From Mycobacterium sp. (GTDB taxonomy: Bacteria > Actinomycetota > Actinomycetes > Mycobacteriales > Mycobacteriaceae): a stretch of DNA of 64,000 nt. This document shows, one piece after another, positions 1-59,364 of this stretch. Made by a program: the position numbers and the translations under genes. Below the pieces are notes generated by a model. The model was not told the origin of the DNA and made no database searches. It saw nothing but the letters and a program-made list of their open reading frames with translations. The stretch is from positions 1,309-65,308 of the forward strand of contig DATBFF010000222.1 in NCBI GenBank assembly GCA_036558625.1. The letters are read 5' to 3'. Each line of letters starts with the position of its first letter. Within the stretch, counting starts at the first letter, position 1.

Positions 1-482
1 CTGTTCAGCACGAGGCCGGTGACGCCGGATGACCTGGCCTCCCGCCGCATCCGGTCCAGCCACAGCGTCACGATCAGCCCGCCGGCCGAGTGCCCGTAGA
101 CCAAAAGGCTCGCGCCGCCGGTCTCGTCAGCGATCAGCGCTGCCGCGCGCTGCAGTTCGACGTCGTAGCAGGCCAGGTCCGTGGTGAAGTGCGGCGTTTG
201 GCCTTCCCGCCAGGACCGACCACACTTGCGAAGGTCGATGGCGTAGAACGCGAAGCCGCGCCCGGTGAAATAGTCGGCGACTTCGGCGTTGAAGAAATAG
301 TCCGTGTAGCCGTGCACCGCAACCACGGCGCGATGGGCCGTCGCCGGATCTTTCTTGCGGATCACGGTCGCGACGATCTCACCCTCGCCGTCGGGATCCA
401 GGCCGAGCGAAAGCGTGCGCTTCGCGTAGCCCGTGAGCACGTCGGGCTCCCAGACGCTCTGGTCTTCGCGCGCTCGGCTCAT
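1..482 (-). CDS. Alpha/beta hydrolase (lysophospholipase-like, Rv2854-like); 3' end runs off the window
   Basis: Manual translation: [39 protein letters not shown]...[10 protein letters not shown]...YGHSAGG (GxSxG nucleophile). Divergent from mqo, as Rv2854 is. Confidence 0.8.
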
Positions 483-514
483 CCGACGCTCTGGTCTTCG
501 CGCGCGCGGCTCAT
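453..514 (-). repeat. Two tandem copies (period 32 bp) of the GATGAGC..GCGAAGA interspersed element at the hydrolase 5' end
   Basis: Minus-strand units atgagccgcgcgcgcgaagaccagagcgtc (514-485) and atgagccgagcgcgcgaagaccagagcgtc (482-453). Confidence 0.9.
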
Positions 515-557
515 CCCCGGCATCGTCACATTAGCCACCTTAGATAACCTGGGGCCC

Positions 558-2051
558 GTGCCAGCCGCGAAAGCCACCGCAAGAACCGACGTCGTGCTCG
601 TCGGCGCCGGCATCATGAGCGCCACGCTCTGCGCGTTGCTGCGGCTGGTCGAACCGAGCTGGTCGATCACCGTGGTAGAACGCCTCGACGGCGCGGCGGC
701 CGAGAGCAGCGACCCGTGGAACAACGCCGGAACCGGGCACTCGGCGCTGTGCGAGCTGAACTACACCCCAGAGCAGCCCGACGGGTCGATCAACATCAGC
801 AAGGCCGTCAAGGTCAACGAGGAATTCCAGATCTCGCGGCAGTTCTGGGCGTACGCGGCGGAGAACGGCGTGCTGACCGATGTGCGCAGCTTCCTCAACC
901 CGATTCCGCACGCCAGCTGGGTGCAAGGCGAAGGGCAAGTGGATTTCATGCGCCGCCGCCGCGAGGCGCTGGCGCGCAACCCGTTGTTCGCTGACGTCGA
1001 GCTGGTCGAAGAGCCCGACGAATTCGCCCGCCGGTTGCCACTCATGGCGAACGGCCGCGACTTCTCGGAGCCGGTCGCGCTCAACTGGGCTCCGGACGGC
1101 ACCGACGTCGACTTCGGTTCGCTGACAAAGCAACTCATCGCCTACGGCGTGCGCACCGGTACCGAAGTGTTGTTCGGCCAGGAGGTTCGCGACCTGCGTC
1201 GTGCTTCCGACGGCTCCTGGACGGTCGAGATCCGCAACAACCGGACCGGCGAAAAGCATTCCGTCAACACGAAATTCGTGTTCGTCGGCGCAGGCGGCGC
1301 CGCCCTACCTCTGCTGCAGAAGTCGGGTATCACCGAGGTGAGGGGGTACGGCGGGTTCCCGGTGGGCGGCAAGTTCCTGCGCACCGCCAACGCGGAGCTC
1401 GCTGCTCGGCATCAGGCGAAGGTCTACGGATTCCCCGCCGTGGGTGCCCCGCCGATGTCCGCACCGCACCTCGACGCGCGGATCATCAACGGCAAGACGT
1501 GGCTGTTGTTCGGGCCGTTCGCCGGATGGTCGCCGAAGTTCCTCAAACGCGGCCACCTCACCGACCTGCCGCGCTCCGTCCGGCCGAACAACCTGAGCGC
1601 GCTGGTCAGCGTCGGAGCAACCGAGATGAGCCTGGTGCGCTATCTGGTCGGCCAGCTCATGCTGTCGGACACCGACCGCGTCGACGCGTTGCGTAACTTC
1701 GTCCCCACCGCAGACACCGCGGATTGGCAGACCACCGTCGCCGGCCAGCGGGTTCAGGTGATCCGTCCCGAAAACCGCAAGGGCGTGCTGGCCTTCGACA
1801 CCACGGTGGTCGGTTCGGCCGACGGCAGCATCGCCGGTCTGATGGGTGCGTCGCCGGGCGCGTCGACGGCCGTCCACGACATGCTCCTTGTGCTCGAGCG
1901 CTGTTTCCCCGACCGCTACCAGTCGTGGCTGGGAAAGCTCAAGGAGATGGTGCCGTCCCTGGGTACGAAATTGTCCGACGAGCCGGCGCTGTTCTCCGAG
2001 GTCTGGGACTGGGGAACCCGCGCGCTCGGTCTGGATCGGGGTGGCACGTGA
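558..2051 (+). CDS. mqo: Malate:quinone oxidoreductase
   Basis: [17 protein letters not shown] motif, [34 protein letters not shown] start 7 nt after TAACCT (-10-like). Confidence 0.95.
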
Positions 2052-2503
2052 CTGTGACGTTGCATCGGTCGTGGGCAAAGGATCTCGCCACAACGACGCT
2101 GTATGAGCTGCTGAAGCTGCGTGTGGAGGTGTTCGTCGTCGAGCAGGCTTGCGCGTACCCCGAACTCGACGGACGGGACCTGCTGCCGGAAACCCGCCAC
2201 TTCTGGCTCGAGGACCCGCGCGGCGAGGTGATCTGCACGCTGCGGCTGATGGAGGAGCACGCCGGCGGGAAGAAGGCGTTTCGTCTCGGCCGGTTGTGCA
2301 CCCGGCGCGCTGCCCGCGGGCATGGCCACACCACAAGGTTGTTGACTGCGGCGCTGGCTGAAGTCGGAGATTACCCGTGCCGCATCGACGCGCAGACCTA
2401 CCTTGAGGAGATGTACACACAGCACGGGTTCGCCAGGGCCGGCGAGGAGTTCCTCGATGACGGCGTGCCGCACGTGCCGATGGTGAAGCGCGGCAGCGGA
2501 TGA
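2048..2503 (+). CDS. GNAT N-acetyltransferase, ElaA family (Rv2851c-like)
   Basis: [27 protein letters not shown]...AQTYLEEMY...F...[15 protein letters not shown] overlap with mqo stop. Confidence 0.9.
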
Positions 2504-4302
2504 CGATCTACCCGTTCAGTGCGATCGTCGGCCATGAGCTGCTTCGGCTCGCGCTGGTGCTCTGCGCCGTGCGCCCGGAAGTCGGCGGAGTGCTGATCCG
2601 TGGTGAGAAGGGCACTGCGAAATCCACTGCGGTGCGGGGACTTTCGGCGGTCTTGGCCGAGGCTGGATTCTCCCGTCTGGTGGAGTTGCCGATCGGCGCC
2701 ACCGAGGACCGGGTCATCGGCTCGCTGGATCTGCAGCGGGTGTTGCGCGACGGCGAGCACGCGTTCACGCCCGGACTGCTGGCCGAGGCGCATGGCGGAG
2801 TGTTGTACGTCGACGAAGTGAATCTTCTCGGCGATCACCTCGTTGATGTGCTGCTCGACGCCGCCGCGATGGGTCGGGTGCACATCGAGCGTGACGGTAT
2901 TTCGCACAGCCACGAGGCGAAGTTCATGCTGGTCGGCACGATGAACCCGGAAGAGGGCGAGCTGCGGCCCCAGCTACTGGACCGGTTCGGCCTGACCGTC
3001 GACGTGCGGGCGTCGCGCGACGTCGACGAGCGCGCTCAGGTGATCAGGCAGCGGATGGCATTCGAGGCGAATCCGGACGCGTTCGCGCGCTCTTACGCCG
3101 ACGCCGACGCCGAGCTGGCGCGACGGATCGCCGCGGCGCGGGTCGCCGTCGGCGACGTGAAGCTGCCGGATCGCGAGTTGGTGCGCATCGCGTCGTTGTG
3201 CGCGGCGTTCGGTGTCGACGGGATGCGAGCCGACCTGGTGGTGGCGCGCACCGCGGTGGCGCATGCGGCGTGGCGGGGTGCGGACACCGTCGGTGAGGAA
3301 GACATCCGGGTAGCGGCGCAACTGGCGCTGCCGCACCGCCGCCGTCGCGACCCGTTCGACGAGCCGGGCCTCGACCCGCAGGCACTCGACGACGCGCTGG
3401 CCCACGCAGGCGACCCCGAACCCGACCCTGATCCACCGGGCGGCGGCGTGTCGTCGGAAACTCAAGAGGCGCCGGGTGATTCGGTCGCACCGCCAGCGCC
3501 GCCGCGTCCCAGCGCGCCGCCGTCCGCACCGTTTCGGACCCGGTTGCTCACTGTGCCCGGCGTCGGTGACGGCGCACCCGGCCGCCGCTCTCGGGCACGC
3601 AACCGCTGCGGCGCCGTGGTGTCCGCGGATGAGACCGAGGGTTTCGGCGTGCATTTGTTCGGCACGGTGCTGGCCGCGGCGCGGCGCACGAACGCAGCCG
3701 GACCGCTGTGCGTCGCCCCGGAGGATCTGCGCCGGGCGGTTCGTGACGGCCGCGAATCCAACCTGGTGATCTTCGTCGTCGACGCGTCGGGGTCGATGGC
3801 GGCACGCGACCGGATGGCGGTGGTCAGCGGTGCCACGCTGTCGCTGCTGCGGGATGCTTACCAGCGTCGTGACAAGGTCGCGGTCATCACGTTCCGGGGC
3901 GACGCCGCGGAGGTGTTGCTGCCGCCGACGTCTTCGGTGCACATCGCGTCGCTGCGACTCGCGCGGTTCGACACCGGCGGCAGAACACCACTGGCGCAAG
4001 GGCTTTTGACCGCTCGCAGCATGGTGGCCCGTGAACACGTGCGCGATCCGGCCCGCCGCAGCCTGGTCGTCGTGCTTACCGACGGACGTGCGACCGGCGG
4101 AGTCGACCCGGTGGGTCGGGCCGAAGCCGCGGCGGCGCTGTTGGTCAACGAGGGAGCGTCCGCGGTCGTCGTCGACTGCGAGACATCTTTCGTGCGTTTG
4201 GGTTTGGCGCAGCAATTGGCCGCCCACCTGGCTGCGCCGACAGTGCGGCTGTCGCAACTGCGGGCCGACGGCCTCACCGAGGTCGTGCGCGGCGCCGCCT
4301 GA
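2500..4302 (+). CDS. Magnesium/cobalt chelatase subunit (ChlI-type AAA+ plus VWA; Rv2850c-like)
   Basis: GEKGTAKST Walker [29 protein letters not shown]-terminal VWA DASGSM and LTDGR. Confidence 0.92.
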
Positions 4303-4316
4303 GAAGGAGACTCACG

Positions 4317-4931
4317 ATGCCGCAGGGCCGGCCGAGCACCGTACCCGCCGACGGGCTGACCACCCGGGTGCGCCGGCACGCTCCTCTGCTCGCCGTACAC
4401 ACCGGCGCGGGCAAGGGCAAGTCGACCGCGGCATTCGGAATGGCACTACGGGCGTGGAACGCCGGGTTTGACATCGCGGTGTTCCAGTTTGTCAAGAGCG
4501 CCAAGTGGAAAGTGGGGGAGGAGAACGCGTTTCGCGAGCTGGGCCGGCTGCACGACGAGCGCGGAGTCGGCGGGTCTGTGGAGTGGCACAAGATGGGGGC
4601 GGGCTGGTCTTGGGCGCGCAAGTCGGGCAGCACCGACGACCACGCAGGCGCGGCAGCCGATGGCTGGGCCGAGATCGCCCATCGGCTGGCCGAGCAGCGG
4701 CACGATTTCTATCTGCTCGACGAATTCACCTATCCGTTGAAGTGGGGCTGGGTGGACGTCGACGAAGTGGTCACGACGCTCGTCGAACGCCCCGGCACGC
4801 AGCATGTCGTGATCACCGGGCGCGACGCCCCGCAGCGGTTGCTCGACGCGGCCGATCTCGTGACGGAGATGACCAAGCTCAAGCACCCGATGGACGCCGG
4901 GCGCAAGGGCCAGAAGGGCATCGAATGGTGA
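4317..4931 (+). CDS. cobO: Cob(I)yrinic acid a,c-diamide adenosyltransferase
   Basis: HTGAGKGKSTAAFGMALRA, LLDEFTY, HVVITGR, KHPMDAGRKGQKGIEW. Confidence 0.95.
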   Translation: MPQGRPSTVPADGLTTRVRRHAPLLAVHTGAGKGKSTAAFGMALRAWNAGFDIAVFQFVKSAKWKVGEENAFRELGRLHDERGVGGSVEWHKMGAGWSWARKSGSTDDHAGAAADGWAEIAHRLAEQRHDFYLLDEFTYPLKWGWVDVDEVVTTLVERPGTQHVVITGRDAPQRLLDAADLVTEMTKLKHPMDAGRKGQKGIEW

Positions 4932-6352
4932 GCACCCCCGCGGTCGTGATCGCCGCACCCGCGTCGGGCAGCGGCAAGACCACGGTGGCCACCGGCCTGA
5001 TCGGGGCGCTGAGGCGAGCGGGCCGCTCTGTCGCGCCGTTCAAGGTCGGCCCCGACTACATCGACCCCGGCTACCACACGCTGGCCGCGGGCCGGCCCGG
5101 CCGCAACCTGGACCCGGTCCTGGTGGGGGAGCATCTCGTCGGTCCCCTGTTCCGCCATGGTTGTGCCGGTACCGATATCGCCGTTGTCGAGGGCGTCATG
5201 GGACTGTTCGACGGGCGGATCGAGCAGGCGGGCGGAGCCGCACGCGGGTCGACTGCGCACGTCGCGGCGCTACTGGGCGCTCCGGTGTTGCTGGTGGTCG
5301 ATGCGCGAGGGCAGAGCCACAGCATCGCGGCATTGCTGCACGGGTTTGCGACGTTCGACTCCGCGATGCGGATCGGGGGAGTGATCCTCAACCGCGTGGG
5401 CTCGGAGCGCCACGGCAAGGTGCTCCGCCAAGGCTGCGCGCAGGCGGGTGTGCGCGTGCTCGGGTCAATCCCGCGGCATGCCGAATTATCTGTTCCGTCA
5501 AGGTATCTGGGTTTGGTGCCCGCCGCAGAGCAAGGTCGCATGGCCTGCCAGGCGGTCGACGCGATGGCAGACCTCGTTGCCGATCACGTTGACATTGCCG
5601 AAGTCGCGGCTCTCGCCGCCAGTACGGTCACCGCGGCGCCGTGGGAGCCGCCGTTCGAGCGCCCCGTCGCTTCAGCGACTGTCGCCATAGCCGCGGGCAA
5701 GGCGTTCACATTCGGCTATGCCGAGCACGTCGAGCTGCTGCAGGCCGCTGGGGCCGATGTGGTCGGCTTCGACCCGCTCACCGATCCTTTGCCGCAAAAT
5801 GCCGACGCCCTGGTGATCCCCGGTGGTTTCCCAGAGCAGTTCACCGCCGAGCTGTCGGCGAATGACGTTGCGCGCCAGCAGATCCGGGAGCTAGCTGCCA
5901 GCGGTGCACCGATACACGCAGAGTGCGCCGGGCTCACCTACCTGGTGTCAGAACTCGAAGGGCATCCGATGTGCGGCGTGCTATCCGGGTCGGCGCGGTT
6001 CACCGACGGTCTGACGTTGGCCTACCGCGACGCCGTGGCCGTCGCAGACTCTTCGATCCATACCACCGGTGATCGCGTGGTCGGCCACGAATTCCACCGC
6101 ACCACTGTGGAATTCGCCGACGCGTATCCACCGGCATGGGTCTACCAGGGCGAGAAGGCGCCGGTTCGGGACGGCGCGGTCCGGGGCGGCGTGCATGCGT
6201 CGTATCTGCACACGCATCCCGTCGCGGTTCCGCAAGCGGTGGCGCGCTTCGTCGCACAGGCGGCCGCCTCTAGGCTCGGCCCGATGAGCCGCTTGCGCGA
6301 AGAGAATCCAACACCGATGAGCCGCTTGCGCGAAGAGAATTCAATCCAGTGA
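4928..6352 (+). CDS. cobB: Cobyrinate a,c-diamide synthase with repeat-derived C-terminal extension
   Basis: SGSGKTT, FKVGPDYIDP, EGVMGLFDG, AECAGL, GHEFH, ASYLHTH. Ends PMSRLREENPTPMSRLREENSIQ. Confidence 0.95.
   Translation: MSTPAVVIAAPASGSGKTTVATGLIGALRRAGRSVAPFKVGPDYIDPGYHTLAAGRPGRNLDPVLVGEHLVGPLFRHGCAGTDIAVVEGVMGLFDGRIEQAGGAARGSTAHVAALLGAPVLLVVDARGQSHSIAALLHGFATFDSAMRIGGVILNRVGSERHGKVLRQGCAQAGVRVLGSIPRHAELSVPSRYLGLVPAAEQGRMACQAVDAMADLVADHVDIAEVAALAASTVTAAPWEPPFERPVASATVAIAAGKAFTFGYAEHVELLQAAGADVVGFDPLTDPLPQNADALVIPGGFPEQFTAELSANDVARQQIRELAASGAPIHAECAGLTYLVSELEGHPMCGVLSGSARFTDGLTLAYRDAVAVADSSIHTTGDRVVGHEFHRTTVEFADAYPPAWVYQGEKAPVRDGAVRGGVHASYLHTHPVAVPQAVARFVAQAAASRLGPMSRLREENPTPMSRLREENSIQ
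6281..6346 (+). repeat. Two tandem 33-bp copies of the GATGAGC..GCGAAGA element at the cobB/cysG junction
   Basis: ccgatgagccgcttgcgcgaagagaatccaaca followed by ccgatgagccgcttgcgcgaagagaattcaatc. Confidence 0.92.
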
Positions 6353-13003: not shown

Positions 13004-13530
13004 TGCGCGGGCTCCTTCAGCGCCAACGGGACCACGGCCGACGTAGCGCACGACGCGGCGATGGAGCCGAGCAGGCCGGCGCGGTATCCGGACACGTTCG
13101 CGGCGAGTTTGGCTGCGCTGTCGGCAGACTCGCGCAGCGCGGCGATGACGTCGCCGCGCGACGGCGGCGGTGACGCAGCAGAGGTGGCCGTGGGAGCCGA
13201 CGGCGGCGGGGTAGTGGCCCCGGCGACGCGGGAGATCTCCTTGGACAGTGCTTTGGCGTGCGCGTCGCGCTCGTTGGCGACCACGTTGAGTAGCGGGGCA
13301 TAGAACACGCCCGCGGCACCCGCTGCCGCACGGGCCATTTGGCTGTCGCGATGAGCCATGTCGAGCTGCGTCATCAGCTCCTCGTCGTGCTGCGTCTCTT
13401 GCGAGCCGCAGCCGGACCCGGTCGCGGCGGCAGCGGTCAGCACGGCTGCACCCACGAGCACGCGGCGCCGGCTGATGCGACGTGCGGCTTCCGACGAGCG
13501 CTCGCGCGGCGAGAAAACAGCCCGAGGCAT
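13000..13530 (-). CDS. Tat-signal lipoprotein-like protein (Rv2843-like)
   Basis: ISRRRVLVGAAVLTAAAATGSGC signal, Ala-rich body, C-terminal AGLLGSIAASC. Confidence 0.72.
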   Translation of the reverse strand: MPRAVFSPRERSSEAARRISRRRVLVGAAVLTAAAATGSGCGSQETQHDEELMTQLDMAHRDSQMARAAAGAAGVFYAPLLNVVANERDAHAKALSKEISRVAGATTPPPSAPTATSAASPPPSRGDVIAALRESADSAAKLAANVSGYRAGLLGSIAASCATSAVVPLALKEPAQ

Positions 13531-15644: not shown

Positions 15645-18293
15645 GTGGCAGGTAAGGCCCGTGTGCACGAGTTGGCCAAGGAACTCGGTGTCACCAGTAA
15701 AGAAGTCCTCGCCCGGCTGAGCGAGCAGGGCGAATTCGTCAAGTCGGCCTCGTCGACCGTGGAGGCCCCGGTCGCGAGGCGGCTACGGGAATCCTTCGGC
15801 GGCGGCAAGTCCGTGCAGGCCCCGGCAGGCAATGGCAAGGCGGCGAAATCCGACGGCGCCGCGCCGGCGAAGGCTGCGAAGGCGGCCGCCGCGCCGGCTC
15901 CTGCCGCACCTGCTGCGCCAGCCCCCGCGCCCGCAGCCCAGGCCCCGGCCCCTGCCGCGAGTGCGCCCCCCGCACCGAGCCCGGCGCCGCCCGCCCCGGC
16001 TGGCCCGCGTCCGGGGCCACGGCCCGGACCGCGCACCCCGCGCGTCGGCAACAACCCGTTCTCCACGGCGCAACCGATCGACCGCCCGATTCCGCGCCCA
16101 CAGGCGCCGCGGCCCGGAATGCCGCGGCCCGGTGCGCGGCCAGGCGCGTCACCCGGCAACATGCCGCCTCGTCCCGCCGGCGGTGTCGGCGGACGGCCCG
16201 GCGGCCCGCGTCCCGGTCCCGGTGGCCGTGGCGCCGGTGCCCCGGCGGGCGGCCGCGGAGGCCCCGGCGGCGGCAACTATCGCGGCGGCGGACCCGGCGG
16301 TGGCGGCCCTGGCGGCGGCGGCGGCGGGTTCCGAGGTCGTCCCGGCGGCGGCGGTCGCCCCGGCCAGCGAGGCGGAGCGGCCGGCGCGTTCGGCCGTCCC
16401 GGCGGCGCACCACGGCGCGGCCGCAAGTCCAAGCGGCAGAAGCGCCAGGAATACGACTCGATGCAGGCACCGGTTGTCGGCGGTGTGCGGTTGCCGCATG
16501 GCAACGGCGAGACCATCCGGCTGGCTCGCGGAGCTTCTTTGAGCGACTTCGCCGAGAAGATCGACGCAAACCCGGCCGCCCTGGTGCAGGCACTGTTCAA
16601 CCTCGGCGAGATGGTGACGGCCACCCAGTCCGTCGGCGACGACACGCTCGAACTGCTGGGCGGCGAGATGAACTACAAGGTCCAAGTCGTCTCCCCAGAG
16701 GACGAGGACCGCGAGCTGCTGGAGTCTTTCGACCTGACCTACGGCGAGGACGAAGGCGGCGAGGAGGATCTCCAGACCCGCCCGCCGGTGGTGACCGTGA
16801 TGGGTCACGTCGACCACGGCAAGACGCGACTGCTGGACACGATCCGCCAGGCCAACGTCCGGGAGGAAGAGGCCGGCGGGATCACCCAGCACATCGGCGC
16901 CTACCAGGTCGGCGTCGACCTCGACGGCACCGAACGGCTGATCACGTTCATCGACACCCCGGGCCACGAAGCGTTCACCGCGATGCGTGCCCGTGGTGCG
17001 AAGGCCACCGACATCGCCATCCTGGTGGTGGCCGCCGACGACGGTGTGATGCCGCAGACGGTCGAGGCCGTCAACCATGCGCAGGCGGCGGATGTGCCAA
17101 TTGTGGTGGCGGTCAACAAGATCGATAAGGAAGGCGCCGACCCGGCCAAGATCCGCGGGCAGCTGACCGAATACGGTTTGGTGCCCGAGGAGTTCGGCGG
17201 CGACACGATGGTCGTCGACATCTCGGCCAAGCAGGGGACCAACATCGAGTCGCTGCTCGAAGCCGTTGTGTTGACCGCGGACGCCGCGCTGGACCTGCGG
17301 GCGAACCCCGACATGGAGGCCCAGGGTGTGGCGATCGAGGCGCATTTGGACCGCGGCCGCGGTCCGGTGGCCACCGTGCTGATTCAGCGCGGCTCGCTGC
17401 ACGTCGGCGACTCCGTGGTGGCCGGCGACGCGTATGGCCGGGTGCGCCGCATGGTCGACGAGCACGGCGAGGACGTCGACGCGGCGCTTCCGTCGCGCCC
17501 GGTGCAGGTCATCGGATTCACGTCGGTGCCGGGCGCCGGTGACAACTTCCTCGTCGTCGACGAGGACCGCATCGCGCGTCAGATCGCCGACCGGCGCAGC
17601 GCGCGCAAACGCAACGCGATGGCGGCCCGCACCCGCAAGCGGATCAGCCTGGAGGATCTGGATTCGGCGCTGAAGGAAACCAGCCAGCTGAACCTGATCC
17701 TCAAGGGCGACAACGCCGGCACCGTCGAGGCGCTGGAAGAGGCGCTGCTCGGCATCCAGATCGACGACGAGGTGGAGCTGCGCGTCATCGACCGCGGGGT
17801 CGGCGGCATCACGGAGACCAACGTCAACCTGGCGTCGGCGTCGGACGCGATCATCATCGGGTTCAACGTCCGTGCCGAGGGCAAGGCGACCGAGCTGGCC
17901 AACCGCGACGGCGTCGAGATCCGCTACTACTCGGTGATCTACCAGGCCATCGACGACATCGAGAGCGCGCTGAAGGGCATGCTCAAGCCGGTCTACGAGG
18001 AACGCGAGCTGGGCCGCGCCGAGGTGCGCGCACTGTTCCGCTCGTCGAAGGTCGGCCTCATCGCCGGCTGCCTGGTCACTTCCGGGGTCATCCGGCGCAA
18101 TGCGAAGGCCCGGTTGTTGCGCGACTCCGTGGTGGTCTCGGAGAACATGACCGTGCAGTCGCTGCGCCGGGAGAAGGACGACGTCACCGAGGTCCGCGAC
18201 GGGTTCGAGTGCGGCTTGACGCTGTCCTACAACGACCTCAAGGAAGGCGACGTCATCGAGACCTACGAGCTGGTCGAGAAGGAACGGACGTAG
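15645..18293 (+). CDS. infB: Translation initiation factor IF-2
   Basis: [35 protein letters not shown]; Pro/Gly-rich linker typical of actinobacterial IF-2. Confidence 0.98.
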
Positions 18294-18324
18294 TGGCCGA
18301 TGAGCGCTCGCGCGAAGAGCAGAC

Positions 18325-38200: not shown

Positions 38201-39013
38201 TCACTCGTGAATCTGCGACCGTCCCCGCTTGATCACGGCGTCGCGATTGGCGGCGATCGCATCGCTGCGCGCGTGGCTGCGGAGCCATTCGGCGGCAGAG
38301 ATTTGCTCGATCCGAAAACTCGCGTGGGTCTGTGCGTCGTCAATGCGGTGGTACGACGCGAGCAGGGCCCGCACCGCGGCGCGGTTGTTGTCGACGATCG
38401 AGGCGGCGACGGCCTTTGCGGCGTCGAGCAGGTCGTCGTGCAGCACCACCTCGGTGACCAGTCCGACGCGCAGCGCGTCGTAGGCGCCGAGGTAGTCGCC
38501 GGTGAGGCTCATTCGATGAGCCAGCCCACGGCCGACGGCCTGCGGCAACCGCACCGACATTCCCCAGCTCGGCAGCAGCCCCACGCGGGCATGAGTGTCG
38601 GCGAACCGGGCGTTCTCCGAGGCGATCAGAATGTCGCAGCACAGGGCCAACTCGAAGCCGCCGGTGACCGCGACCCCGTTGATGGCACCGATCACCGGTT
38701 TGGTCATCGGCGGCCATGCCGGAGACAGGTCGGGGATACCGCCCCCACCTTTGAGGCCTGGACCGATCTCTTTCAGGTCGATGCCGGCGCAGAAGGCGGG
38801 ATCGGTTCCGGTCAGGATCACCACGTCGACGTCGTCGTCTTCGTCGGCATCGCGTAGGGCGGGAAACAGCTTGTCCCGCAACCCCGTCGACAGCGCGTTG
38901 CGCACATCGGGGCGGTTGACGGTCAGCGTCCGGACCCGGTCGGCGGTTTCGATCAGCAGCACGTCGTCATCGTCTGTCTGCTCTTCGCGCGAGCGCTCAT
39001 CGTCATCAGCCAC
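38201..39013 (-). CDS. Enoyl-CoA hydratase/isomerase family protein (EchA16-like)
   Basis: LTVNRPDVRNAL, AFCAGIDLK, GAINGVAVTGGFELALCCD. Confidence 0.9.
   Translation of the reverse strand: MADDDERSREEQTDDDDVLLIETADRVRTLTVNRPDVRNALSTGLRDKLFPALRDADEDDDVDVVILTGTDPAFCAGIDLKEIGPGLKGGGGIPDLSPAWPPMTKPVIGAINGVAVTGGFELALCCDILIASENARFADTHARVGLLPSWGMSVRLPQAVGRGLAHRMSLTGDYLGAYDALRVGLVTEVVLHDDLLDAAKAVAASIVDNNRAAVRALLASYHRIDDAQTHASFRIEQISAAEWLRSHARSDAIAANRDAVIKRGRSQIHE
38978..39001 (-). repeat. GATGAGC..GCGAAGA element in frame within the echA 5' end (DERSREEQT)
   Basis: Minus strand gatgagcgctcgcgcgaagagcag, identical to the cores at 18299 and 59337. Confidence 0.9.
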
Positions 39014-46476: not shown

Positions 46477-48744
46477 ATGTCTGTAGCTGAAATCGACGAG
46501 GGCGTGTACGAATCCACCGCCACGATCGACAACGGGAGCTTCGGCACCCGCACCATCCGTTTTGAGGCCGGCCGCCTCGCCCAGCAGGCGGCCGGCGCCG
46601 TGGTCGCCTACCTCGACGAGGAGACCATGCTGCTTTCGGCCACCACCGCGAGCAAGGCACCCAAGGAGCACTTCGACTTCTTCCCGCTGACCGTGGACGT
46701 GGAAGAGCGCATGTACGCCGCCGGGCGCATCCCCGGCTCGTTCTTCCGCCGGGAGGGCCGCCCGTCCACCGACGCGATCCTGACCTGCCGGCTCATCGAC
46801 CGCCCGCTGCGCCCGTCGTTCGTGGACGGCCTGCGCAACGAGATCCAGGTGGTCGTGACGATCCTGTCTCTTGATCCCGACGAGCTCTACGACGTGCTGG
46901 CCATCAACGCCGCGTCGGCGTCCACCCAGCTGGCGGGCCTTCCGTTCTCCGGCCCCGTCGGTGGCGTCCGGGTCGCACTGATCGACGGCACGTGGGTGGC
47001 GTTCCCCACCGTCGCGCAACTCGAGCGGGCCGTGTTCGACATGGTCGTGGCCGGCCGGCTGGTCGGCGACTCCGCCGACGGAGATATAGCGATCATGATG
47101 GTCGAGGCGGAGGCCACCGAGAACGTCGTCGCACTGCTCGACGGGGGTGCCCAGGCACCCACCGAGCCCGTGGTGGCCGAAGGCCTTGAGGCCGCCAAGC
47201 CGTACATCCGCAGTCTCTGCGAGGCCCAGCAGGAGTTGGCTCGGCAGGCCGCCAAGGAGACCGCCGAGTACCCGATCTTCCCCGAGTACGGCGACGACGT
47301 GTTCTATGCGGTCTCGTCGGTGGCCACCGACGACCTGACGCAGGCATTGACGATCGCGGGCAAGGCCGAACGCAACGAGCGCACCGACGAGATCAAAGCC
47401 GATGTCATCGCCCGGCTGGCCGAGACCTACGAAGGCCGCGAGAAGGAGATCAGCGCGGCCTTCCGCTCGCTGACCAAAAAGCTTGTGCGGCAACGGATTC
47501 TGACCGACCACTTCCGCATCGACGGTCGCGGCATCACCGACATCAGGGCGTTGAGCGCCGAGGTGTCCGTCGTGCCCCGCGCGCACGGCAGCGCGCTGTT
47601 CCAGCGTGGCGAGACCCAGATCCTCGGTGTCACCACCCTGGACATGATCAAGATGGCCCAGCAGATCGACTCGCTGGGGCCGGAGACCTCCAAGCGCTAC
47701 ATGCACCACTACAACTTCCCGCCGTTCTCCACCGGTGAGACGGGACGGGTCGGGTCTCCGAAGCGTCGCGAGATCGGCCACGGCGCACTGGCCGAGCGCG
47801 CGCTGGTGCCGGTGCTGCCCAGTGTCGAGGAGTTCCCGTACGCGATCCGGCAGGTGTCGGAAGCGCTCGGCTCCAACGGGTCGACGTCGATGGGCTCGGT
47901 GTGCGCGTCGACGCTGGCACTGCTGAATGCCGGTGTGCCGCTGAAGGCTCCGGTCGCAGGCATCGCGATGGGCCTCGTCTCCGACGATGTGGAGTTGGAC
48001 GACGGCGGGACCGAGCGCCGGTTCGTCGCGCTGACCGACATCCTCGGCGCCGAGGATGCGTTCGGCGACATGGACTTCAAGGTGGCCGGCACCAGGGACT
48101 TCGTCACCGCGCTGCAGCTCGACACCAAACTCGACGGCATCCCTTCGAAGGTGCTCGCCGGCGCGTTGTCGCAGGCAAAGGATGCGCGCCTGACCATCCT
48201 CGAGGTGATGGCCGAGGCCATTGATGCGCCGGACGAGATGAGTCCGTACGCACCGAGGGTCACCACGATCAAGGTGCCGGTCGACAAGATCGGTGAGGTG
48301 ATCGGCCCCAAGGGCAAGATGATCAACTCGATCACCGAGGAGACCGGCGCGCAGATCTCGATCGAGGACGACGGCACCGTGTTCGTCGGCGCCACCGACG
48401 GTCTGTCGGCGCAGGCCGCGATCGACAAGATCAACGCGATCGCCAACCCGCAGCTGCCCAAGATCGGCGAACGCTTCCTCGGCACCGTCGTCAAGACCAC
48501 CGACTTCGGAGCGTTCGTGTCGCTTCTGCCCGGACGCGACGGCTTGGTGCACATCTCCAAGCTCGGTCGGGGGAAGCGCATCGCGCGCGTCGAAGATGTC
48601 GTCAAGGTCGGCGACAAGTTGCGTGTCGAGATCGCCGACATCGACAACCGCGGCAAGATCTCGCTGATCCTCGTTGCCGAAGAGGAGTCTGCTGAGCCAC
48701 CCGCATCGCCCGCACCTGCGGATGCCGCGCACACCGGCCCGTAA
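46477..48744 (+). CDS. pnp: Polyribonucleotide nucleotidyltransferase (PNPase/GpsI)
   Basis: [46 protein letters not shown] and S1 domains. Confidence 0.98.
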
Positions 48745-50137
48745 GGCAGCCCTCGGGGGTCGTCGCGAAGCGACCGGGGGGACGGCGGACCTCGGGGGTC
48801 GTCGCGAAGCGACCGGGGGGACGGCGAAGCTGCGGCGAGGTTCACGCGGCAGCGAGACTGCAATCGCGCTGCGCCGCACCACGCTTCCGGGCGGCCTGCG
48901 CGTAGTCACCGAATGCGTGCCGCACGTGCGCTCGGCTTCGGTAGGTGTGTGGGTCGGCGTGGGTTCGCGCGACGAAGGCCCCAGCGTCGCCGGCGCGGCG
49001 CATTTCCTTGAGCACCTGCTGTTCAAGGCGACGCCGACGCGCACCGCGGTCCAGATCGCCCAGGCCGTCGACGCGGTTGGCGGTGAGCTGAACGCGTTCA
49101 CCGCCAAGGAGCACACCTGTTACTACGCGCACGTGCTTGACAGCGACCTCGAGCTGGCGGTGGATTTGGTTTCCGACGTGGTGCTCAACGGAATCTGCGC
49201 GCCAGACGACGTCGAACTCGAACGCGACGTTGTCCTCGAGGAAATCGCGATGCGCGACGACGATCCCGAGGATGCGATCGGTGACGTGTTCCTCGCGGCT
49301 CTCTTCGGCGGGCATCCCGTCGGCCGCCCGGTCGTCGGCACCGTCGACTCCGTGTCGGCGATGACACGCCGCCAGCTGCACTCGTTTCATCTGCGCCGCT
49401 ACACCCCCGAGCGGATGGTGGTCGCGGTCGCGGGCAACGTCGACCACGACCAGGTGGTGTCGTTGGTGCGCCGCTACTTCGGTGCGCGATTGCGGCCCGG
49501 CACCGGCGCCGCTGCACCCCGCAAGGGTTCCGGCCGAGTGGCGGGCCACCCGACGCTGATGTTGGGCAACCGTGACGCCGAGCAGACTCACATGACGCTG
49601 GGGGTGCGCGCGCCCGGCCGGCACTGGCAGAACCGCTGGGCGCTGGCGGTGCTGAACACCGCGATCGGTGGCGGCCTCAGTTCTCGGCTGTTCCAACAGG
49701 TCCGGGAAGAGCGCGGTCTGGCCTACACCGTGTACTCCAGCGTCGACACGTTCGCCGAAACCGGTGCGCTGTCGGTGTACACCGCGTGTCTGCCGGAGCG
49801 GTTCGACGACGTCGTCACCGTCACCACCGACGTGCTCGAAAGGGTGGCGCGCGACGGCATCACCGACCACGAATGCCACATCGCAAAGGGTTCGATGCGC
49901 GGGGGACTGGTTCTGGGACTGGAGGATTCCGCCTCGCGGATGAACCGCATCGGCCGCAACGAAATGAATTATGGCGAACATCGCAGCATTGAAGACACAC
50001 TCGCCAAGATCGAGGATGTGTCACTCGACGAGGTGAACGCCGTCGCCCGCCGAGTGCTGGACGGCCCCTACGGTGCAGCAGTGCTAGGGCCGTATCGATC
50101 CGAACGTCAGCTGCCGCAACGACTTCGAAGGCTTTAG
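48722..50137 (+). CDS. pepR: M16 family zinc peptidase (PepR, Rv2782c-like) with repeat-extended N-terminus
   Basis: GSRDE, AHFLEH (HxxEH), LNAFT; ATG overlaps the pnp 3' end. Confidence 0.9.
48751..48828 (+). repeat. 39-bp tandem repeat (2 copies), in frame in the pepR 5' end
   Basis: cctcgggggtcgtcgcgaagcgaccggggggacggcg(g/a)a twice; encodes [12 protein letters not shown](D/K). Confidence 0.92.
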
Positions 50138-51878: not shown

Positions 51879-51882
51879 AAAG

Positions 51883-53006: not shown

Positions 53007-53048
53007 GAATAACATTCGGCTTTACCGCAATTATGACGATGATCATTC
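53007..53048. promoter_or_regulatory. Two AldR-type operator sites
   Basis: GAATAACATTC (53007-53017) and GATGATCATTC (53038-53048) fit the described GA/T-N2-NWW/WWN-N2-A/TC consensus; 31-bp spacing. Confidence 0.65.
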
Positions 53049-53062
53049 GGTATGATGCCTCG

Positions 53063-53578
53063 GTGACTGAACGATCGCTCAAACAGTCCGGTGATGATGG
53101 GCGCTCTCCGAACGATCTTCGGCGTGCGGCGATCGACGACGTCGACCGACGGATCCTCAACGCCTTGCACGACGACGCGAGGATCCCCAACAGCGCGCTG
53201 GCGGACATCGTCGGCATCGCGGCGTCGACCTGTCATGTCCGGTTGCGCCGGTTGCAGGACCTCGGCATCATCCGCGGCTTCTACGCCGACGTCGACCCGG
53301 CAGCGATCGGTCGGCCGCTGCAGGCGATGATCTCGGTGAGCCTGCAAGCCGGCGCCCGCGGGCACATCCGCCACTTCATCTCCGAGATCCGCAAACTGCC
53401 GCAGGTGATCGACGTGTACTTCCTGGCCGGCCCCGACGACTTCATCCTTCACGTCGCCGCTCGCGACACCGACGACCTGCGGGCGTTCGTGGTGGAAAAC
53501 CTCAACGCCGACCCGGACGTCGCGGGCACCCAGACTTCGCTGATCTTCGAGCATCTGCGCGGCGGCGCCCCCCTCTAG
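53063..53578 (+). CDS. aldR: Lrp/AsnC-family regulator AldR (Rv2779c-like)
   Basis: DDVDRRIL..L..DARIPNSALA HTH, divergent from ald. GTG 6 nt after TATGAT; ORF track start 53033. Confidence 0.92.
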   Translation: MTERSLKQSGDDGRSPNDLRRAAIDDVDRRILNALHDDARIPNSALADIVGIAASTCHVRLRRLQDLGIIRGFYADVDPAAIGRPLQAMISVSLQAGARGHIRHFISEIRKLPQVIDVYFLAGPDDFILHVAARDTDDLRAFVVENLNADPDVAGTQTSLIFEHLRGGAPL

Positions 53579-53584
53579 CCCATT

Positions 53585-53650
53585 GCCGCGAGCGTGCGTG
53601 TCGGCACCCCGACACGCCGAGAAAACGCGGACAATGCGCACGCTCGCGGC
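53585..53650. repeat. REP-like hairpin downstream of aldR
   Basis: Perfect 14-bp arms gccgcgagcgtgcg / cgcacgctcgcggc. Confidence 0.7.
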
Positions 53651-53688
53651 GATGCGAACGTGCGCTTTCTCCGCAAAGCGAGCGCTAG

Positions 53689-54889
<1,201 letters not shown>

Positions 54890-54893
<4 letters not shown>

Positions 54894-55345
54894 CCAAGAC
54901 GCTGCTGATCGTGCACCACACCCCGTCGCCGCACTGCCAGGAGATGTTCGAGGCGACAGTGGCCGGGGCGACCGACCCAGAAATCGAGGGCGTCGAAGTC
55001 GTGCGCCGCCCGGCACTCACAGTCTCGCCGGTCGAGATGCTGGAAGCCGACGGCTATTTGCTCGGCACCCCCGCGAACCTCGGATACCTCAGCGGTGCGA
55101 TGAAGCACGCGTTCGACTGTGCCTACTATCAACTTCTCGACGCCGCCCGTGGGCGTCCGTTCGGTATCTACCTACACGGCAACGAAGGAACCGAGGGAGC
55201 CGAGCGCGGTCTGCGGGCCATCACCACAGGCCTCGGATGGGCACAGGCGGCGGAGACGGTCATCGTGATGGGCAAACCGAGCAAGGCCGATCTCGAGGCG
55301 TGCTGGAACCTCGGCGCGACAGTCGCCGCCGCACTGATGGAATAA
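54890..55345 (+). CDS. Flavodoxin family protein (Rv2771c-like)
   Basis: LLIVHHTPSP, LGTPANLGYLSGAMKHAFD, HGNEGTEGA. Confidence 0.85.
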
Positions 55346-55386
55346 GTCGCACGGCTGAACTCATATGCCCCTGGTTTGATGCACTC

Positions 55387-56364
55387 ATGCGAGGATCCCG
55401 CGTCAAACCCAGTCTGCGCAGCGAACTCGTCGCTGCGGTGGCATACCTGACTCTTCGACCGTGGTCCGCGTTCATCCCGGCAAACCGATTCGGAGTCGCT
55501 CTTGTCCGGATCAACCTGCGGATGGCCTGTCTACTCAGCCGCCCAGTTCACGGCAGCCGCGTAAAGCAGGTGCGCGAATCGATAGGTGGTGAATGGGTGC
55601 GCGCCCCAGGCGCTGACGAGGATGCCGGGGTGGTGATGCTGTTGCACGGAAGCGGCTATATCGGCTGCTCGCCGAAAACGCATCGCGGTTTCGCTTCACA
55701 CATCTCGCGGTATTCGGGGTTGCCGGTGTTCGTGCCGCGCTACCGCCTGGCACCAGAACACCCGTTCCCCGCTGCCGCCGACGACGCCTACCTCGCCTAC
55801 CGGTGGTTGCTTGGCCGGGGATACGACGCCGCCAAGGTCACGCTGGTGGGCGATTCGGCGGGCGGTCATCTGGCCATCGCGCTGGCCGCCCAGGCGCGCG
55901 CCGAGGATCTTCCCCTGCCGTCGGCACTCGTCCTGTTCGGCCCGCTCATCGACCCGTCGTTCAAGATTGCGATGGCCGATTCCCGAACCCAATACAATCC
56001 GATCGACCCGAGCGTTGGACGCCGGTTCCTCGATCTCTATGTCGGTAGCCACGACATCGACGATCCTCGGTTATCGCTGCTTCGCGTAGCGGCGGCCGGA
56101 CTGCCGCCGATTGAACTGCACTACGGGACCCTCGAAGTCATGCGCGCCGAGGCAGAACTGTTCGCATCTCGCGTCAAGCAGGCGGGTGGATCCTGCGACC
56201 AGTACGTCTGGCCGAACCTGGTGCACGGGTACTGGCTATTCCCACGCCTCGTTCCAGAGGCGATGGAAAGCGTTCGCACTGCCGGGCAATTCCTCCACGA
56301 CGCCGTCCGATCGCCGGCTCCCGGTCGAGAAGCCGATCCGCACCTCGCGGGCGGGAATCGTTGA
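55387..56364 (+). CDS. HSL-family esterase/lipase
   Basis: LHGSGY, YRLAPEHPFPAA, GDSAGG, LVHGY. Start uncertain. Confidence 0.88.
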   Translation: MRGSRVKPSLRSELVAAVAYLTLRPWSAFIPANRFGVALVRINLRMACLLSRPVHGSRVKQVRESIGGEWVRAPGADEDAGVVMLLHGSGYIGCSPKTHRGFASHISRYSGLPVFVPRYRLAPEHPFPAAADDAYLAYRWLLGRGYDAAKVTLVGDSAGGHLAIALAAQARAEDLPLPSALVLFGPLIDPSFKIAMADSRTQYNPIDPSVGRRFLDLYVGSHDIDDPRLSLLRVAAAGLPPIELHYGTLEVMRAEAELFASRVKQAGGSCDQYVWPNLVHGYWLFPRLVPEAMESVRTAGQFLHDAVRSPAPGREADPHLAGGNR

Positions 56365-56415
56365 GCTGCGACCGGTTTGGAGGTGTTCATCGTGCTGACC
56401 GTTGAAAGGATTAGG

Positions 56416-56619
56416 TCAAGTGGAATCCGCCTCCTGCGGCGGGGCAAGAAGGGCAACCGCGATGTTCAGCGGGCCGAGCATGAGCAACGCCAAAACGAAG
56501 AACACCGCGCGGTTGTACTTCTTTTGTGCCGCAAGCGAAGCGGCCACACTGGCGCATGTCAGCTGATAGACCGCGGTCACCAGCACGCCGAGAACGATGA
56601 GCATCACAACGACATTCAT
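56416..56619 (-). CDS. Possible small two-TM membrane protein
   Basis: MNVVVMLIVLGVLVTAVY...KKYNRAVFFVLALLMLGPLNIAVALL; hydrophobic pattern only. Confidence 0.5.
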   Translation of the reverse strand: MNVVVMLIVLGVLVTAVYQLTCASVAASLAAQKKYNRAVFFVLALLMLGPLNIAVALLAPPQEADST

Positions 56620-56770
56620 GGCCCATGATTGCATCCGGGCACCCACGCATCGCCCATATGCCGCACGTGTCCGGGGCCTGAGACCTGGTGATTCGAACGA
56701 CCACGCTAAGCGGGTACGAACCAGGGGGCTACGTTGGCCGCGGTGCTGATGGCGTGATAGGGAAGCACGT

Positions 56771-57220
56771 ATGCCAGGAATCGCCGAACTCGCACTGGGC
56801 GCAGCGCCTATCTTCGGGGGCGCGCTGCTCGGCGCCGTGGCGGGCCAAGTCAAAGGGCCCGACTTCCGCGGTCAGATCAAAACCGATCTCGACCTGCTCG
56901 ATCGGCTGCCAGCGGAGGAGACCGAACGCCGTGCCGCGCTGCAGCGCACAATCGACCAGCGCATAGACGACCTCGTTGCGGCCAGCGACCGCAGTAGGGA
57001 GCTGCGGTCGCTGGCCAGCTCCTACGAGGGCAACTGGCGTGACATCGTGTTGTTTCTGTCCGCTGTCCTGTTCACGGTCGTGTGGTGGAACGTCGAGCAC
57101 TCCCGCAACTACTGGATCTTCATGTTCGTGGTGATGATCATCGTGTCGGTGGTCAGCGGCATCTATGCGCTTCGCGGGTTCCGGCGCAGCATCGCGGTGC
57201 TGCTGCACCGGGGCGGCTAG
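56771..57220 (+). CDS. Hypothetical membrane protein
   Basis: N-terminal hydrophobic stretch, coiled region, two C-terminal TM segments; GGAAG upstream. Confidence 0.7.
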
Positions 57221-57951
57221 AGCGCCGAATCGAACAGCGCCTTGAGCGCGAGCCAGTGCCGCTCGGCAGCCTCTTCGTCATACGGCGCATTGTCGGGCAC
57301 CGCGAACCCGTGCCCGGCGTGATACGTCTCGATCGTGTGCGTAACCCCTGCGGCGTCCAATGCCTTAGCGAGGGTCTCGGCCTGGCTGCGCGTGAACGAG
57401 CCGTCGTTCTCGGCGGCTCCGACGTAGATCGTCGCCTGCATCCGGTCGGCCTGCAGATGCGGGCTGTCGGCGGTGTCGGTTACCAGCCCGCCGCCGTGGA
57501 TCGAGCCCGCGGCGGCGACGCGCTCGGGTTGGCGGCCGGCCACGATCAGCGACGCGCGTCCGCCCATGCAGTAGCCGCAGACGCCGAACCGCTCGCCGGC
57601 CACCTCGGGTCGCTGCGCCAGGAAGTCGAAGAACGCCGCCGCGTCGGCAGACCACATGTCGGCGGTCACGCTGCCGATCATCTTGAACAGCCGGGCACGC
57701 TCCTTCGGGTCGGTGAACGCGGTCTCCATCGAGAACGGCTGCCATTCGCCGTGGCGGTAGTACACGTCCGGCAGCAGCACCGCATAGCCGAAGCCGGCCA
57801 TCGTGTCGGCCATCTCATGGAAGGTTGCGCGCACGCCGCCGGCGTCGGGATACATCACCACCCCCGGCCACGGACCCGTGCCGTTGGGCGTGTGCAGGGT
57901 GACGGGGCAGGAGCCGTCGGATGTGGTGACGTTCGCGGAGACACTCGGCAT
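57217..57951 (-). CDS. Dienelactone hydrolase family protein (Rv2765-like)
   Basis: YPDAGG, GYCMGG (Cys nucleophile), HGG, GHGFAV. Confidence 0.92.
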
Positions 57952-57993
57952 GGTGTAGTTCTACTCGCCGGGCTCGGACGTAAGCTGACCGAC

Positions 57994-58794
57994 GTGCCCA
58001 TAGCCATGCCGTATGAGGATCTGCTACGTCTCGCGCTGCAGGCGGGTACGGCGAAATCCGACCGCACCGGCACCGGCACCCGAAGCCTGTTCGGCCAGCA
58101 GATCCGATTCGACCTCTCCGCGGGCTTCCCACTGATCACCACCAAGAAGGTGCACATCAAGTCGGTCGTCTACGAGTTGCTGTGGTTTCTGCGTGGTGAC
58201 AGCAACGTCGGGTGGCTACAGGAGCACGGTGTCACCATTTGGGACGAATGGGCTTCGGAAACAGGCGATCTCGGGCCGATCTATGGGGTGCAGTGGCGGT
58301 CGTGGCCGACGCCGTCCGGCGAGCACATCGACCAGATCAGTGCCGCCCTGCACCTACTGCGCACCGACCCGGACTCGCGGCGGATCATCGTCTCCGCGTG
58401 GAACGTCGCGCAGATCCCGCAGATGGCGCTGGCGCCGTGCCATGCGCTGTTCCAGTTCTATGTCGCCGACGGAAGGCTGAGCTGCCAGCTGTATCAGCGC
58501 AGTGCAGACCTGTTCCTGGGCGTGCCGTTCAACATCGCCAGCTATGCATTGCTGACACACATGATGGCCGCACAAGCCGGCCTCGGCGTCGGCGAATTCG
58601 TCTGGACCGGCGGTGACTGCCACATCTACGACAACCACGTCGAACAGGTCACTGAGCAACTCAGCCGAGAGCCACGGCCCTACCCGGAACTCATGCTCGC
58701 AGAACGTGATTCGCTGTTCGACTACACGTACGACGACGTCACGATCCTCAACTACGACCCGCACCCGGCGATCAAGGCGCCTGTGGCCGTATGA
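57994..58794 (+). CDS. thyA: Thymidylate synthase
   Basis: [44 protein letters not shown]. Start GTG 57994 or ATG 58006. Confidence 0.97.
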
Positions 58795-58823
58795 GGCCTG
58801 CTCGCAGGGCCGAACATCGATGA
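58791..58823 (+). other. Coupled mini-[13 protein letters not shown] bridging thyA and dfrA
   Basis: ATGA overlaps at both ends (58791-58794 and 58820-58823). Confidence 0.6.
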
Positions 58824-59341
58824 AGAGTTCAGTGAGCCTGATCTGGGCTCAGTCGATCTCGGGCGTGATCGGCCGTTCCGGCGACATCCCGTGGCGCCTG
58901 CCCGAGGACATGTCCCGATTCAAGGATCTGACGATGGGTCACACGGTGGTGATGGGCCGGCGCACATGGGAGTCGTTGCCCGACCGGTTCCGGCCGCTGC
59001 CGGGTCGCCGGAATGTCGTACTGACGCGGCAAACCGACTACGCGGCAGAAGGGGCCGAGGTCGTCACGTCGTTCCAGGACGCACTCGCCCTCGACGATGC
59101 TCTTCGCCCGAGAGGCTCATCGGAAGACGACGTGTGGGTGATCGGCGGCGCGGAGATCTACGCGCTCGGTCTGCCACACGCCGCCCGCTGCGAAGTCACC
59201 GAGGTGGACATCCACATGCCTCGCCAGGACGACGACGCCGTCGCACCGGTGCTCGACGAGAGCTGGGTGGCGCACGACGGAGAGTGGCAGGTCAGTCGCA
59301 CCGGCCTGCGCTACCGGTTCAGTAGCTACCGGCGGCGATGA
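58820..59341 (+). CDS. dfrA: Dihydrofolate reductase with an internal loop insertion
   Basis: [47 protein letters not shown]. Confidence 0.96.
59096..59121 (-). repeat. Reverse-orientation GATGAGC..GCGAAGA element inside dfrA
   Basis: Reverse complement gatgagcctctcgggcgaagagcatc; encodes DALRPRGSS in DfrA. Confidence 0.75.
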
Positions 59342-59364
59342 GCGCTCGCGCGAAGAGCAGATGA
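59338..59364 (+). repeat. GATGAGC..GCGAAGA element forming the mini-[11 protein letters not shown] between dfrA and the next gene
   Basis: ATG overlaps the dfrA TGA; its TGA overlaps the ATG at 59361. Confidence 0.85.

Follow-up and report, generated by a model that had tools for sequence, protein, structure and literature searches.

Mycobacterial interspersed repetitive units (MIRUs) have been used for 25 years for tuberculosis strain typing and are mostly treated as a trait of slow-growing pathogens; they were reportedly defined by Supply et al. in 1997 (Mol Microbiol 26:991). They measure about 40–100 bp (46–101 nucleotides, nt), occupy about 40–50 loci, are co-transcribed within operons and carry open reading frames (ORFs) that overlap the neighbouring genes; empty and filled sites with tetranucleotide direct repeats have been described (PMC3184786). 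MIRUs insert at start codons with a -4 coupling (PMC12548453) and one paper confines them to M. leprae and the M. tuberculosis complex (PMC4213456). Here we describe a shorter interspersed repeat, with a unit of about 33 bases, in a 64,000-nt stretch of DNA (the window, C222:1309-65308) from the metagenome-assembled genome of a soil mycobacterium (G000; 4.46 Mb, 66% G+C, 264 contigs, 93% complete), which RbfA and the adjoining genes assign to Mycobacterium/Mycolicibacterium. We consider it probable, at roughly 80%, that this is a MIRU-like interspersed mini-repeat, non-coding and non-autonomous DNA whose persisting copies are those that leave translation intact.

The family sequence is GATGAGC(C)GCTYGCGCGAAGAG. 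Approximately 24–27 bases of each unit are conserved, (C)GATGAGC(C)GCTYGCGCGAAGAGCAGA, and are followed by a locus-specific tail of 5–9 bases. Measured by information content, the conserved part is C-GATGAGC-(C)-GCTYGCGC-GAAGAGCAGA, after which come a weaker cGGCa and then a G one period past the first G. The 25-nt core GATGAGCGCTCGCGCGAAGAGCAGA has three exact copies in the window, at 18299-18323 (+), 38977-39001 (-) and 59337-59361 (+), versus none expected from 100 dinucleotide-preserving shuffles of the window. For genome counts we used the strict pattern GATGAGC(N0-1)GCTYGCGCGAAGA, with the same pattern reversed as control. In G000 the strict pattern gave 158 matches versus none for its reverse, and reversed matches were likewise absent from 69 genomes. 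The motif is far more frequent than chance in both the window and the genome, and the shuffles and the reversed pattern rule out chance or GC composition as its source.

A profile search of the whole genome (nhmmer, E<=1) gathered 249 copies at 181 loci, of which 136 hold a single unit and 45 hold arrays of two to five units. Periods within these arrays are 33 nt (36 times) or 32 nt (21 times), and the family makes up 41 of the 205 tandem arrays in G000 with a period of at least 18 nt. Two subtypes, nearly equal in number (101 and 120 units), are told apart by a single C after GATGAGC. The ORF that opens in the unit accordingly reads either MSA(C/R)AKSR... or MSRLREEQ..., depending on the subtype, from the same DNA in a shifted frame. 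Because a 1-nt indel shifts the frame between the subtypes, the DNA and not the peptide is the conserved entity. In arrays with a 32-nt period the ORF of each unit stops in the ATGA of the next unit, and in those with a 33-nt period the units read as one continuous frame; all in-frame N-terminal arrays have the 33-nt period.

The original prediction had placed copies at six loci in the window. All six are present, the reading frames it gave are correct, and empty orthologous sites exist for all six. One of them is at the 3’ end of cobB (4925..6352, identified by Pfam search), where two 33-nt units at 6283..6348 (+) are in frame and add 22 C-terminal residues, MSRLREENPTP MSRLREENSIQ. The cobB stop TGA (6350-6352) overlaps the GTG start (6349) of a cysG/cobA-like gene. 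This junction is empty, as GGTGA, in four related genomes (G485, G012, G051 and G005). One unit is present in G484 (+32 nt), with cobB stopping in the unit ATGA and a separate mini-ORF stopping in the GTGA, and three units are present in G041 (+99 nt). The final GTGA overlap is retained in every genome compared.

The single unit at 18296..18324 (+) lies between the infB stop TAG (18291-18293) and the rbfA ATG (18325). In 79 Mycobacterium genomes this junction is mostly empty, reading TAGATG, TAAATG, TGATG or TAGTG. It is filled in about 14 of the 79, by single inserts of 25, 32, 34 or 36 nt, by two units (L026 and L027), or by about eight (M. xanthum). Two genomes labelled M. peregrinum differ at this site, which is empty in one and filled in the other. 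The tails belong to several unrelated types, pointing to more than one insertion event at this junction. Other junctions in the approximately 500 kb of infB-rbfA orthologous loci from these 79 genomes had no copy. In the M. xanthum array (L066, about 2736-3000, 264 nt) the unit variants GCGCTTGCGCGACGA and GCGCGTGCGCGACGAACC alternate, implying a 66-nt higher-order period.

At the junction of folA and an AlkZ-like glycosylase gene, one short unit (59337..59364, +) forms a 23-nt insert. The folA stop TGA (59339-59341) is the TGA of the unit’s ATGA, so that G000 reads ATGA-GCGCTCGCGCGAAGAGCAG-ATGA, and the mini-ORF of the unit stops in the TGA at 59362-59364, overlapping the ATG of the AlkZ-like gene (59361). 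Eight relatives that have both genes show a plain ATGA overlap instead, for example gcATGAcc. A restarted gene is seen at 453..516 (-), where two 32-nt units of the divergent variant GGATGAGCCGAGCGCGCGAAGACCAGAGCGTC stand directly ahead of a conserved motif, W(E/Q)PD, in the ORF of an alpha/beta hydrolase (3..482, -; Pfam Hydrolase_4). This variant was not reported by nhmmer at E<=10 and was assigned by eye, with agreement at roughly 24 of the 28 positions in the core. In the proximal unit the ATG (A at 482) shares the hydrolase frame and is likely the new start of the gene; the ORF of the distal unit (ATG, A at 514) stops in a TGA that overlaps the proximal ATG as ATGA. The orthologous site in G485 (L188) is without both units and reads GTG ACT GTT GTG TCC GCG GTC TGG. 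In G000 a short ORF now begins at the ancestral start and stops in the ATGA of the gene-restarting unit.

The remaining two copies lie inside proteins. An enoyl-CoA hydratase gene (38201..39013, -; Pfam ECH_1) contains a 36-nt in-frame insert after codon 5 (38963..39001, -), which adds 12 residues between VADD and DVLLIE and is bordered by the 9-nt direct repeat GAYGACGAY. The closest relative (G012, L126; 90% amino acid identity) reads VADDDVLLIE, encoded as GTG GCC GAC GAC GAT GTG CTG, with no insert, and 20 further orthologues likewise lack it. Within the dihydrofolate reductase (DHFR) gene (58832..59341; Pfam DHFR_1) there is a divergent reverse copy at 59096..59122 (-; nhmmer E 1.5), whose variant GATGAGCCTCTCGGGCGAAGAG is found again elsewhere in G000. 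It is in frame and encodes a surface loop of about 10 residues immediately ahead of the VWVIGG strand. Among 23 aligned DHFR orthologues only those of G000 and G012 have RPRGSS, and the others are 9–17 residues shorter there. The suggestion that such insertions remodel protein termini and loops is thus borne out by the 22 residues added to CobB, the new N-terminus of the hydrolase, the 12 residues in the hydratase and the DHFR loop. We also noted a possible degenerate copy, GACGAGCGCTCGCGCGGCGAG, at 13491..13508 (+), which is weak (nhmmer E 0.8) and was excluded from the members.

We extended the comparison to 18 further loci by joining the flanks of all these G000 loci into a single query and searching five related genomes. 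The lengths between the flanks fall into steps: 27–31 nt where the site is empty, 60 or 61 nt with one unit, 92 nt with two, 120–127 nt with three and about 160 nt with four. Empty sites exist for these 18 loci as well, the filled loci differ from genome to genome, and at one site the number of units ranges from zero to four among six related genomes. From these empty orthologous sites we conclude that insertion is the derived state.

The sizes of the inserts, obtained by deleting each insert from the G000 sequence and matching the remainder to the empty orthologue, depend on where they lie. Within coding sequences they are 24, 27, 30, 33 (seven times), 36 and 96 nt, all multiples of three. 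Between genes they are 23, 25, 29, 32, 34, 36 and 64 nt, mostly not multiples of three, and the commonest single-unit insert, 32 nt, restores a -4 (NTGA) overlap. These lengths fit the proposal that a duplicating mini-element is tolerated because translational coupling or reading frame is kept, and that proposal is supported.

Genome-wide placement agrees with this picture. Genes were called with a home-made codon-bias frame caller trained on G000, whose calls are approximate, start codons above all. With the unit’s ATG setting the orientation, 112 of 165 loci have co-oriented coding sequence on the downstream flank, 25 have coding sequence of the opposite strand there and 28 have non-coding sequence; both flanks are co-oriented coding sequence at 48 loci, and convergent contexts account for two. 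Where a co-oriented gene lies upstream, its stop is the unit’s TGA at 31 of 60 loci (ATGA 19, TGATG 12). The stop of the last mini-ORF overlaps the next coding start at 47 loci (NTGA 39, TGATG 8), and at 12 more the next start follows 3–12 nt past that stop. The unit’s ATG is in frame with the downstream gene at 19 loci, and both ends of the unit are coupled or in frame at 19. A single coding frame spans the copy in about 15 of 157 loci (about 10%), 11 in sense and 4 in antisense orientation, giving DERSREE, DEPLARR, ALRASGSS and similar segments. Insertion into the gene was confirmed against orthologues for DHFR, the enoyl-CoA hydratase and several others; an in-frame copy also occurs in a protein that, judging from its sequence, we take to be NadE-like.

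The repeat has spread by copying to about 180 sites in G000, and into many rapid growers, and then gains and loses units locally as a 32/33-nt minisatellite. Persisting copies are compatible with translation in one of three modes. Between co-oriented genes, the GATGA of the unit overlaps the upstream stop with the unit’s own ATG, opening a throw-away ORF of 8–12 codons whose stop in turn overlaps the next start as NTGA or TGATG. Ribosomes would terminate and reinitiate across such mini-ORFs, keeping the downstream gene translationally coupled, and the purine-rich GAAGAG(G/C)AGA about 7–11 nt ahead of the next start might give weak Shine-Dalgarno help. In the second mode, a 33-nt unit forms an in-frame N- or C-terminal extension of the protein, and in the third, a unit of 3n length in either orientation reads as a hydrophilic intragenic loop. 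The sequence would be maintained by copying and not by selection on a peptide or an RNA fold.

The boundaries of the insertions suggest how copies might arise and expand. Short direct repeats border several filled sites, namely the hydratase (GAYGACGAY), folA, with (G)ATGA(G), locus C178 (CTGA) and C115 (GATGAGC). A fixed target-site duplication was considered and rejected, the boundary ambiguity being mostly 0–4 nt and sometimes 7–10 nt. The 5’ flank and the tail one period further on are more alike than in locus-permuted controls (z 5–6), a likeness that is weak at each single locus, and the tail spacers are uniform within an array and different between arrays. Together these two observations suggest that core and site-specific repeat together make up the period, and that slippage between the repeats may let arrays grow. 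New copies would arise in a way that leaves behind short direct repeats and yields inserts of 23–36 nt. Such variable inserts with short repeats are better fitted by templated copy-paste or a trans-acting enzyme than by a transposon with fixed ends, and spread by templated copying from existing copies and spread by a trans-acting enzyme are both possible.

Several points weigh against the MIRU-like mini-repeat account as set out here. Translation of the mini-ORFs and reinitiation after them are what we infer from the sequence. In G000 itself the coupling at infB-rbfA is untidy, since the mini-ORF (ATG at 18300) overlaps rbfA out of frame, and about a quarter of the loci, those with opposite-strand (25) or non-coding (28) sequence downstream, lie outside the junction picture. 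The exact counts of couplings are approximate because the start codons from the codon-bias caller are. The spacing from GAAGAG to the start ranges from 1 to 14 nt, so a Shine-Dalgarno role is not general. Perfect direct repeats are often 0–4 nt with fuzzy boundaries, and a strict target-site duplication is therefore not established. The idea that targets already share ATGAGC with the element was rejected (7 of 39, 18%, versus 24% in the background; p 0.56). Finally, presence patterns among relatives are incongruent, and repeated insertion and precise loss are inseparable without a species tree.

Folding gave no sign of a structured element. The original prediction had listed an internal palindrome as a feature of the unit; this did not hold for the family, as TCGCGCGA is found only in the GCTCGCGCG (C) variant and the common GCTTGCGCG (T) variant is without it. 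We found no stable hairpin on either strand, in single units or in a three-unit array, with folding z scores of 0.0 to +0.9 relative to shuffles, and no terminal inverted repeats. Rfam held no match to the repeat. The only Rfam match in the window at the gathering threshold is an Actino-pnp leader (RF01688; 46360-46415, +; 52.5 bits) upstream of pnp, an ordinary and expected feature there.

A bolder version of the copying idea can be entertained tentatively, although we think it more probably wrong than right. The family might record active copy-paste movement aimed at stop/start junctions, different from a usual transposon in lacking terminal repeats, a hairpin, a fixed length and a recognisable enzyme, and MIRUs and the present repeat might then both belong to a broader class of elements that tolerate, or depend on, translation. 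Leaning toward it are the infB-rbfA junction, which holds at least 4–5 insertion alleles among the 79 genomes, and the writing of modules of 8–12 residues into proteins such as the essential DHFR.

The strong bias to co-oriented gene starts could also mean that the repeat is a regulatory module selected by the host, a portable translational coupler, a ribosome-binding cassette or an upstream ORF tuning the downstream gene, and is kept for its function. The purine-rich GAAGAG(G)AGA ahead of the next start would suit such a role, as would the conservation of one core over many species, and a unit that is no more folded than shuffles, slightly less if anything, would favour initiation. However, a needed regulator would be stable, and instead presence and copy number vary in close relatives at essential junctions, from zero to three units at cobB-cysG, and from empty to filled among M. 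peregrinum-labelled genomes at infB-rbfA. Moreover, about 10% of the copies lie inside coding sequence in either orientation, the adjoining genes share no function, and the peptide is not conserved. We therefore regard a host-selected module as unlikely.

Movement by a dedicated transposase, in the manner of repetitive extragenic palindromes (REPs) and bacterial interspersed mosaic elements (BIMEs) or of miniature inverted-repeat transposable elements (MITEs), appears less likely still. The enzyme would be a REP-associated tyrosine transposase (RAYT) or other IS200-IS605 Y1 transposase, or a DDE transposase with terminal inverted repeats as its substrate. The repeat is indeed dispersed, short and high-copy, with short direct repeats at its boundaries, and Delihas has discussed MIRUs as possibly MITE-like (PMC3184786). 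Against this, it has neither a hairpin nor terminal inverted repeats, its folding energy equals that of shuffles, and inserts of 23–36 nt with direct repeats of 0–10 nt are unlike a fixed-end transposon. A Y1_Tnp domain (PF01797, RAYT) was not found in either of the sample’s two richest genomes, G000 with 158 copies and G012 with 100, each an incomplete assembly (G012 is 84% complete). REPs, in addition, lie mostly at gene 3’ ends without the orientation rule of the repeat. A reading in which the amino-acid sequence is the functional unit, as a conserved leader peptide or a repeated protein motif, can draw on the ATG-opened short frame of each unit and on 33-nt arrays that read (MSRLREEQKAA)n, but it is scarcely credible given that a single C after ATGAGC turns the product into an unrelated peptide (MSACAKSR... 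versus MSRLREEQ...) while the DNA stays conserved, that the reading of intragenic copies uses three frames and both strands, and that mini-ORF lengths differ.

Rapidly growing mycobacteria carry the repeat widely. The strict pattern gave 0–100 matches in each of 24 further genomes from the genus; in another family one genome had five matches, and most of the order’s remaining families had none. Named species that carry it are, among others, M. peregrinum (20 and 40 matches in two genomes), M. septicum (14), M. vaccae (34), M. neoaurum (9), M. wolinskyi (19), M. canariasense (30), M. iranicum (51), M. litorale (26), M. xanthum (61) and M. deserti (44). Strict matches were absent from M. simulans, which has two weak matches, and from a Rhodococcus.

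Other short repeats came to light along the way. A second, similar short family, (C)TGATGAACGMAGTGAAGAAGGCA, sometimes repeated, occupies the infB-rbfA junction at about position 3000 of L022, L030, L034, L067, L076 and L077, and L005 and L036 carry TGATGAGCG(C/G)AGCGAAGAAGGCC at the same junction. Counted with the 33-base repeat, these show that several mini-repeat families associated with start codons exist in the genus. Within the window, a 39-nt tandem repeat, CCTCGGGGGTCGTCGCGAAGCGACCGGGGGGACGGCGGA, lies just after pnp (46477..48744) at 48751-48826 (C222:50059-50134), with 1.9 copies that are 100% identical, and is possibly a member of another interspersed family. Besides this, G000 has two short tandem families, with a 26–27-nt unit containing CGCGSACGCGAGGAGCAA and a 30-nt unit, GACACCGGAGCAGGACGGCCGGCGACACAT, at three loci; their positions are C81:1324-1381, C150:50610-50710, C161:43415-43464; C114:6197-6264, C194:32340-32396, C113:26428-26484.

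The MIRU design thus recurs here at a much reduced size and in far greater abundance, in harmless species that grow fast and can be cultured, such as M. vaccae, M. iranicum, M. peregrinum and M. neoaurum. Differences in unit number between relatives make mobility, termination-reinitiation across the mini-ORFs and the tolerance of essential enzymes to 11-residue inserts testable, and the sites offer ready variable-number tandem repeat (VNTR) markers for environmental mycobacteria. They also call for caution in annotation, as the repeat is the source of the start codons, C-termini and apparent small ORFs found there. A full-text literature search on the core sequence and on ‘MIRU-like’, with a coverage that omits most subscription journals, found no description of the repeat.

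Among known repeats other than MIRUs, three kinds invite comparison. Rickettsia palindromic elements are palindromic, about 100–150 bp long and not tied to start/stop junctions. Our repeat resembles them in being tolerated in frame within genes, where it adds a surface peptide segment, but it is only 33 nt long, has no hairpin, and its in-frame copies are a minority. REPs form hairpins, lie mostly downstream of genes, occur as inverted pairs and co-occur with a RAYT gene. The present repeat shares with REPs and BIMEs a very short unit (20–40 nt in REPs), high copy number and an interspersed, sometimes clustered distribution; in contrast to them it lacks a hairpin, does not form inverted pairs, has no RAYT gene in its two richest genomes, both incomplete assemblies, and is not placed in the 3’-end manner. 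Like minisatellites and VNTRs it forms head-to-tail arrays in which the number of units varies between related genomes (0–4 per site). Unlike an ordinary VNTR, which arises by local duplication, it has the same core at about 180 unrelated loci and in many species.

For a direct comparison with MIRUs we recovered classical copies from slow-grower genomes via the senX3-regX3 junction, using an M. tuberculosis RegX3 sequence as query. One genome (G399, L124) has an ATGA...ATGA insert of about 100 nt at this junction, which is empty (cgATGAcc) in three other slow-grower genomes. A second MIRU, a 53-nt unit flanked by ATGA, lies upstream of the enoyl-CoA hydratase orthologue in G019 (L137). Against these two recovered copies, and not the published consensus, the repeat showed no significant similarity (p 0.05–0.6; 26–386 of 500 dinucleotide shuffles scored equal or better). 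Its organization is nonetheless close to theirs. It is dispersed in Mycobacterium, often in tandem with a variable number of units; it sits at stop/start junctions of co-oriented genes, in the orientation of the genes; its small ORF overlaps the stop and the start of the neighbours (ATGA); and its orthologous sites are empty or filled, with short direct repeats. It differs from MIRUs (46–101 nt) in size, with a core of 24–27 nt, a period of 32/33 nt and single inserts of 23–36 nt, at most half as large, and in having no GC-rich internal inverted repeat. It also occupies three to four times as many loci (about 180), places about 10% of its copies in frame inside proteins, and is hosted by rapidly growing environmental mycobacteria. 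The repeat is thus MIRU-like in design and separate from the classical MIRUs in sequence, with intragenic copies that recall the Rickettsia palindromic elements by their effect and not by their structure.

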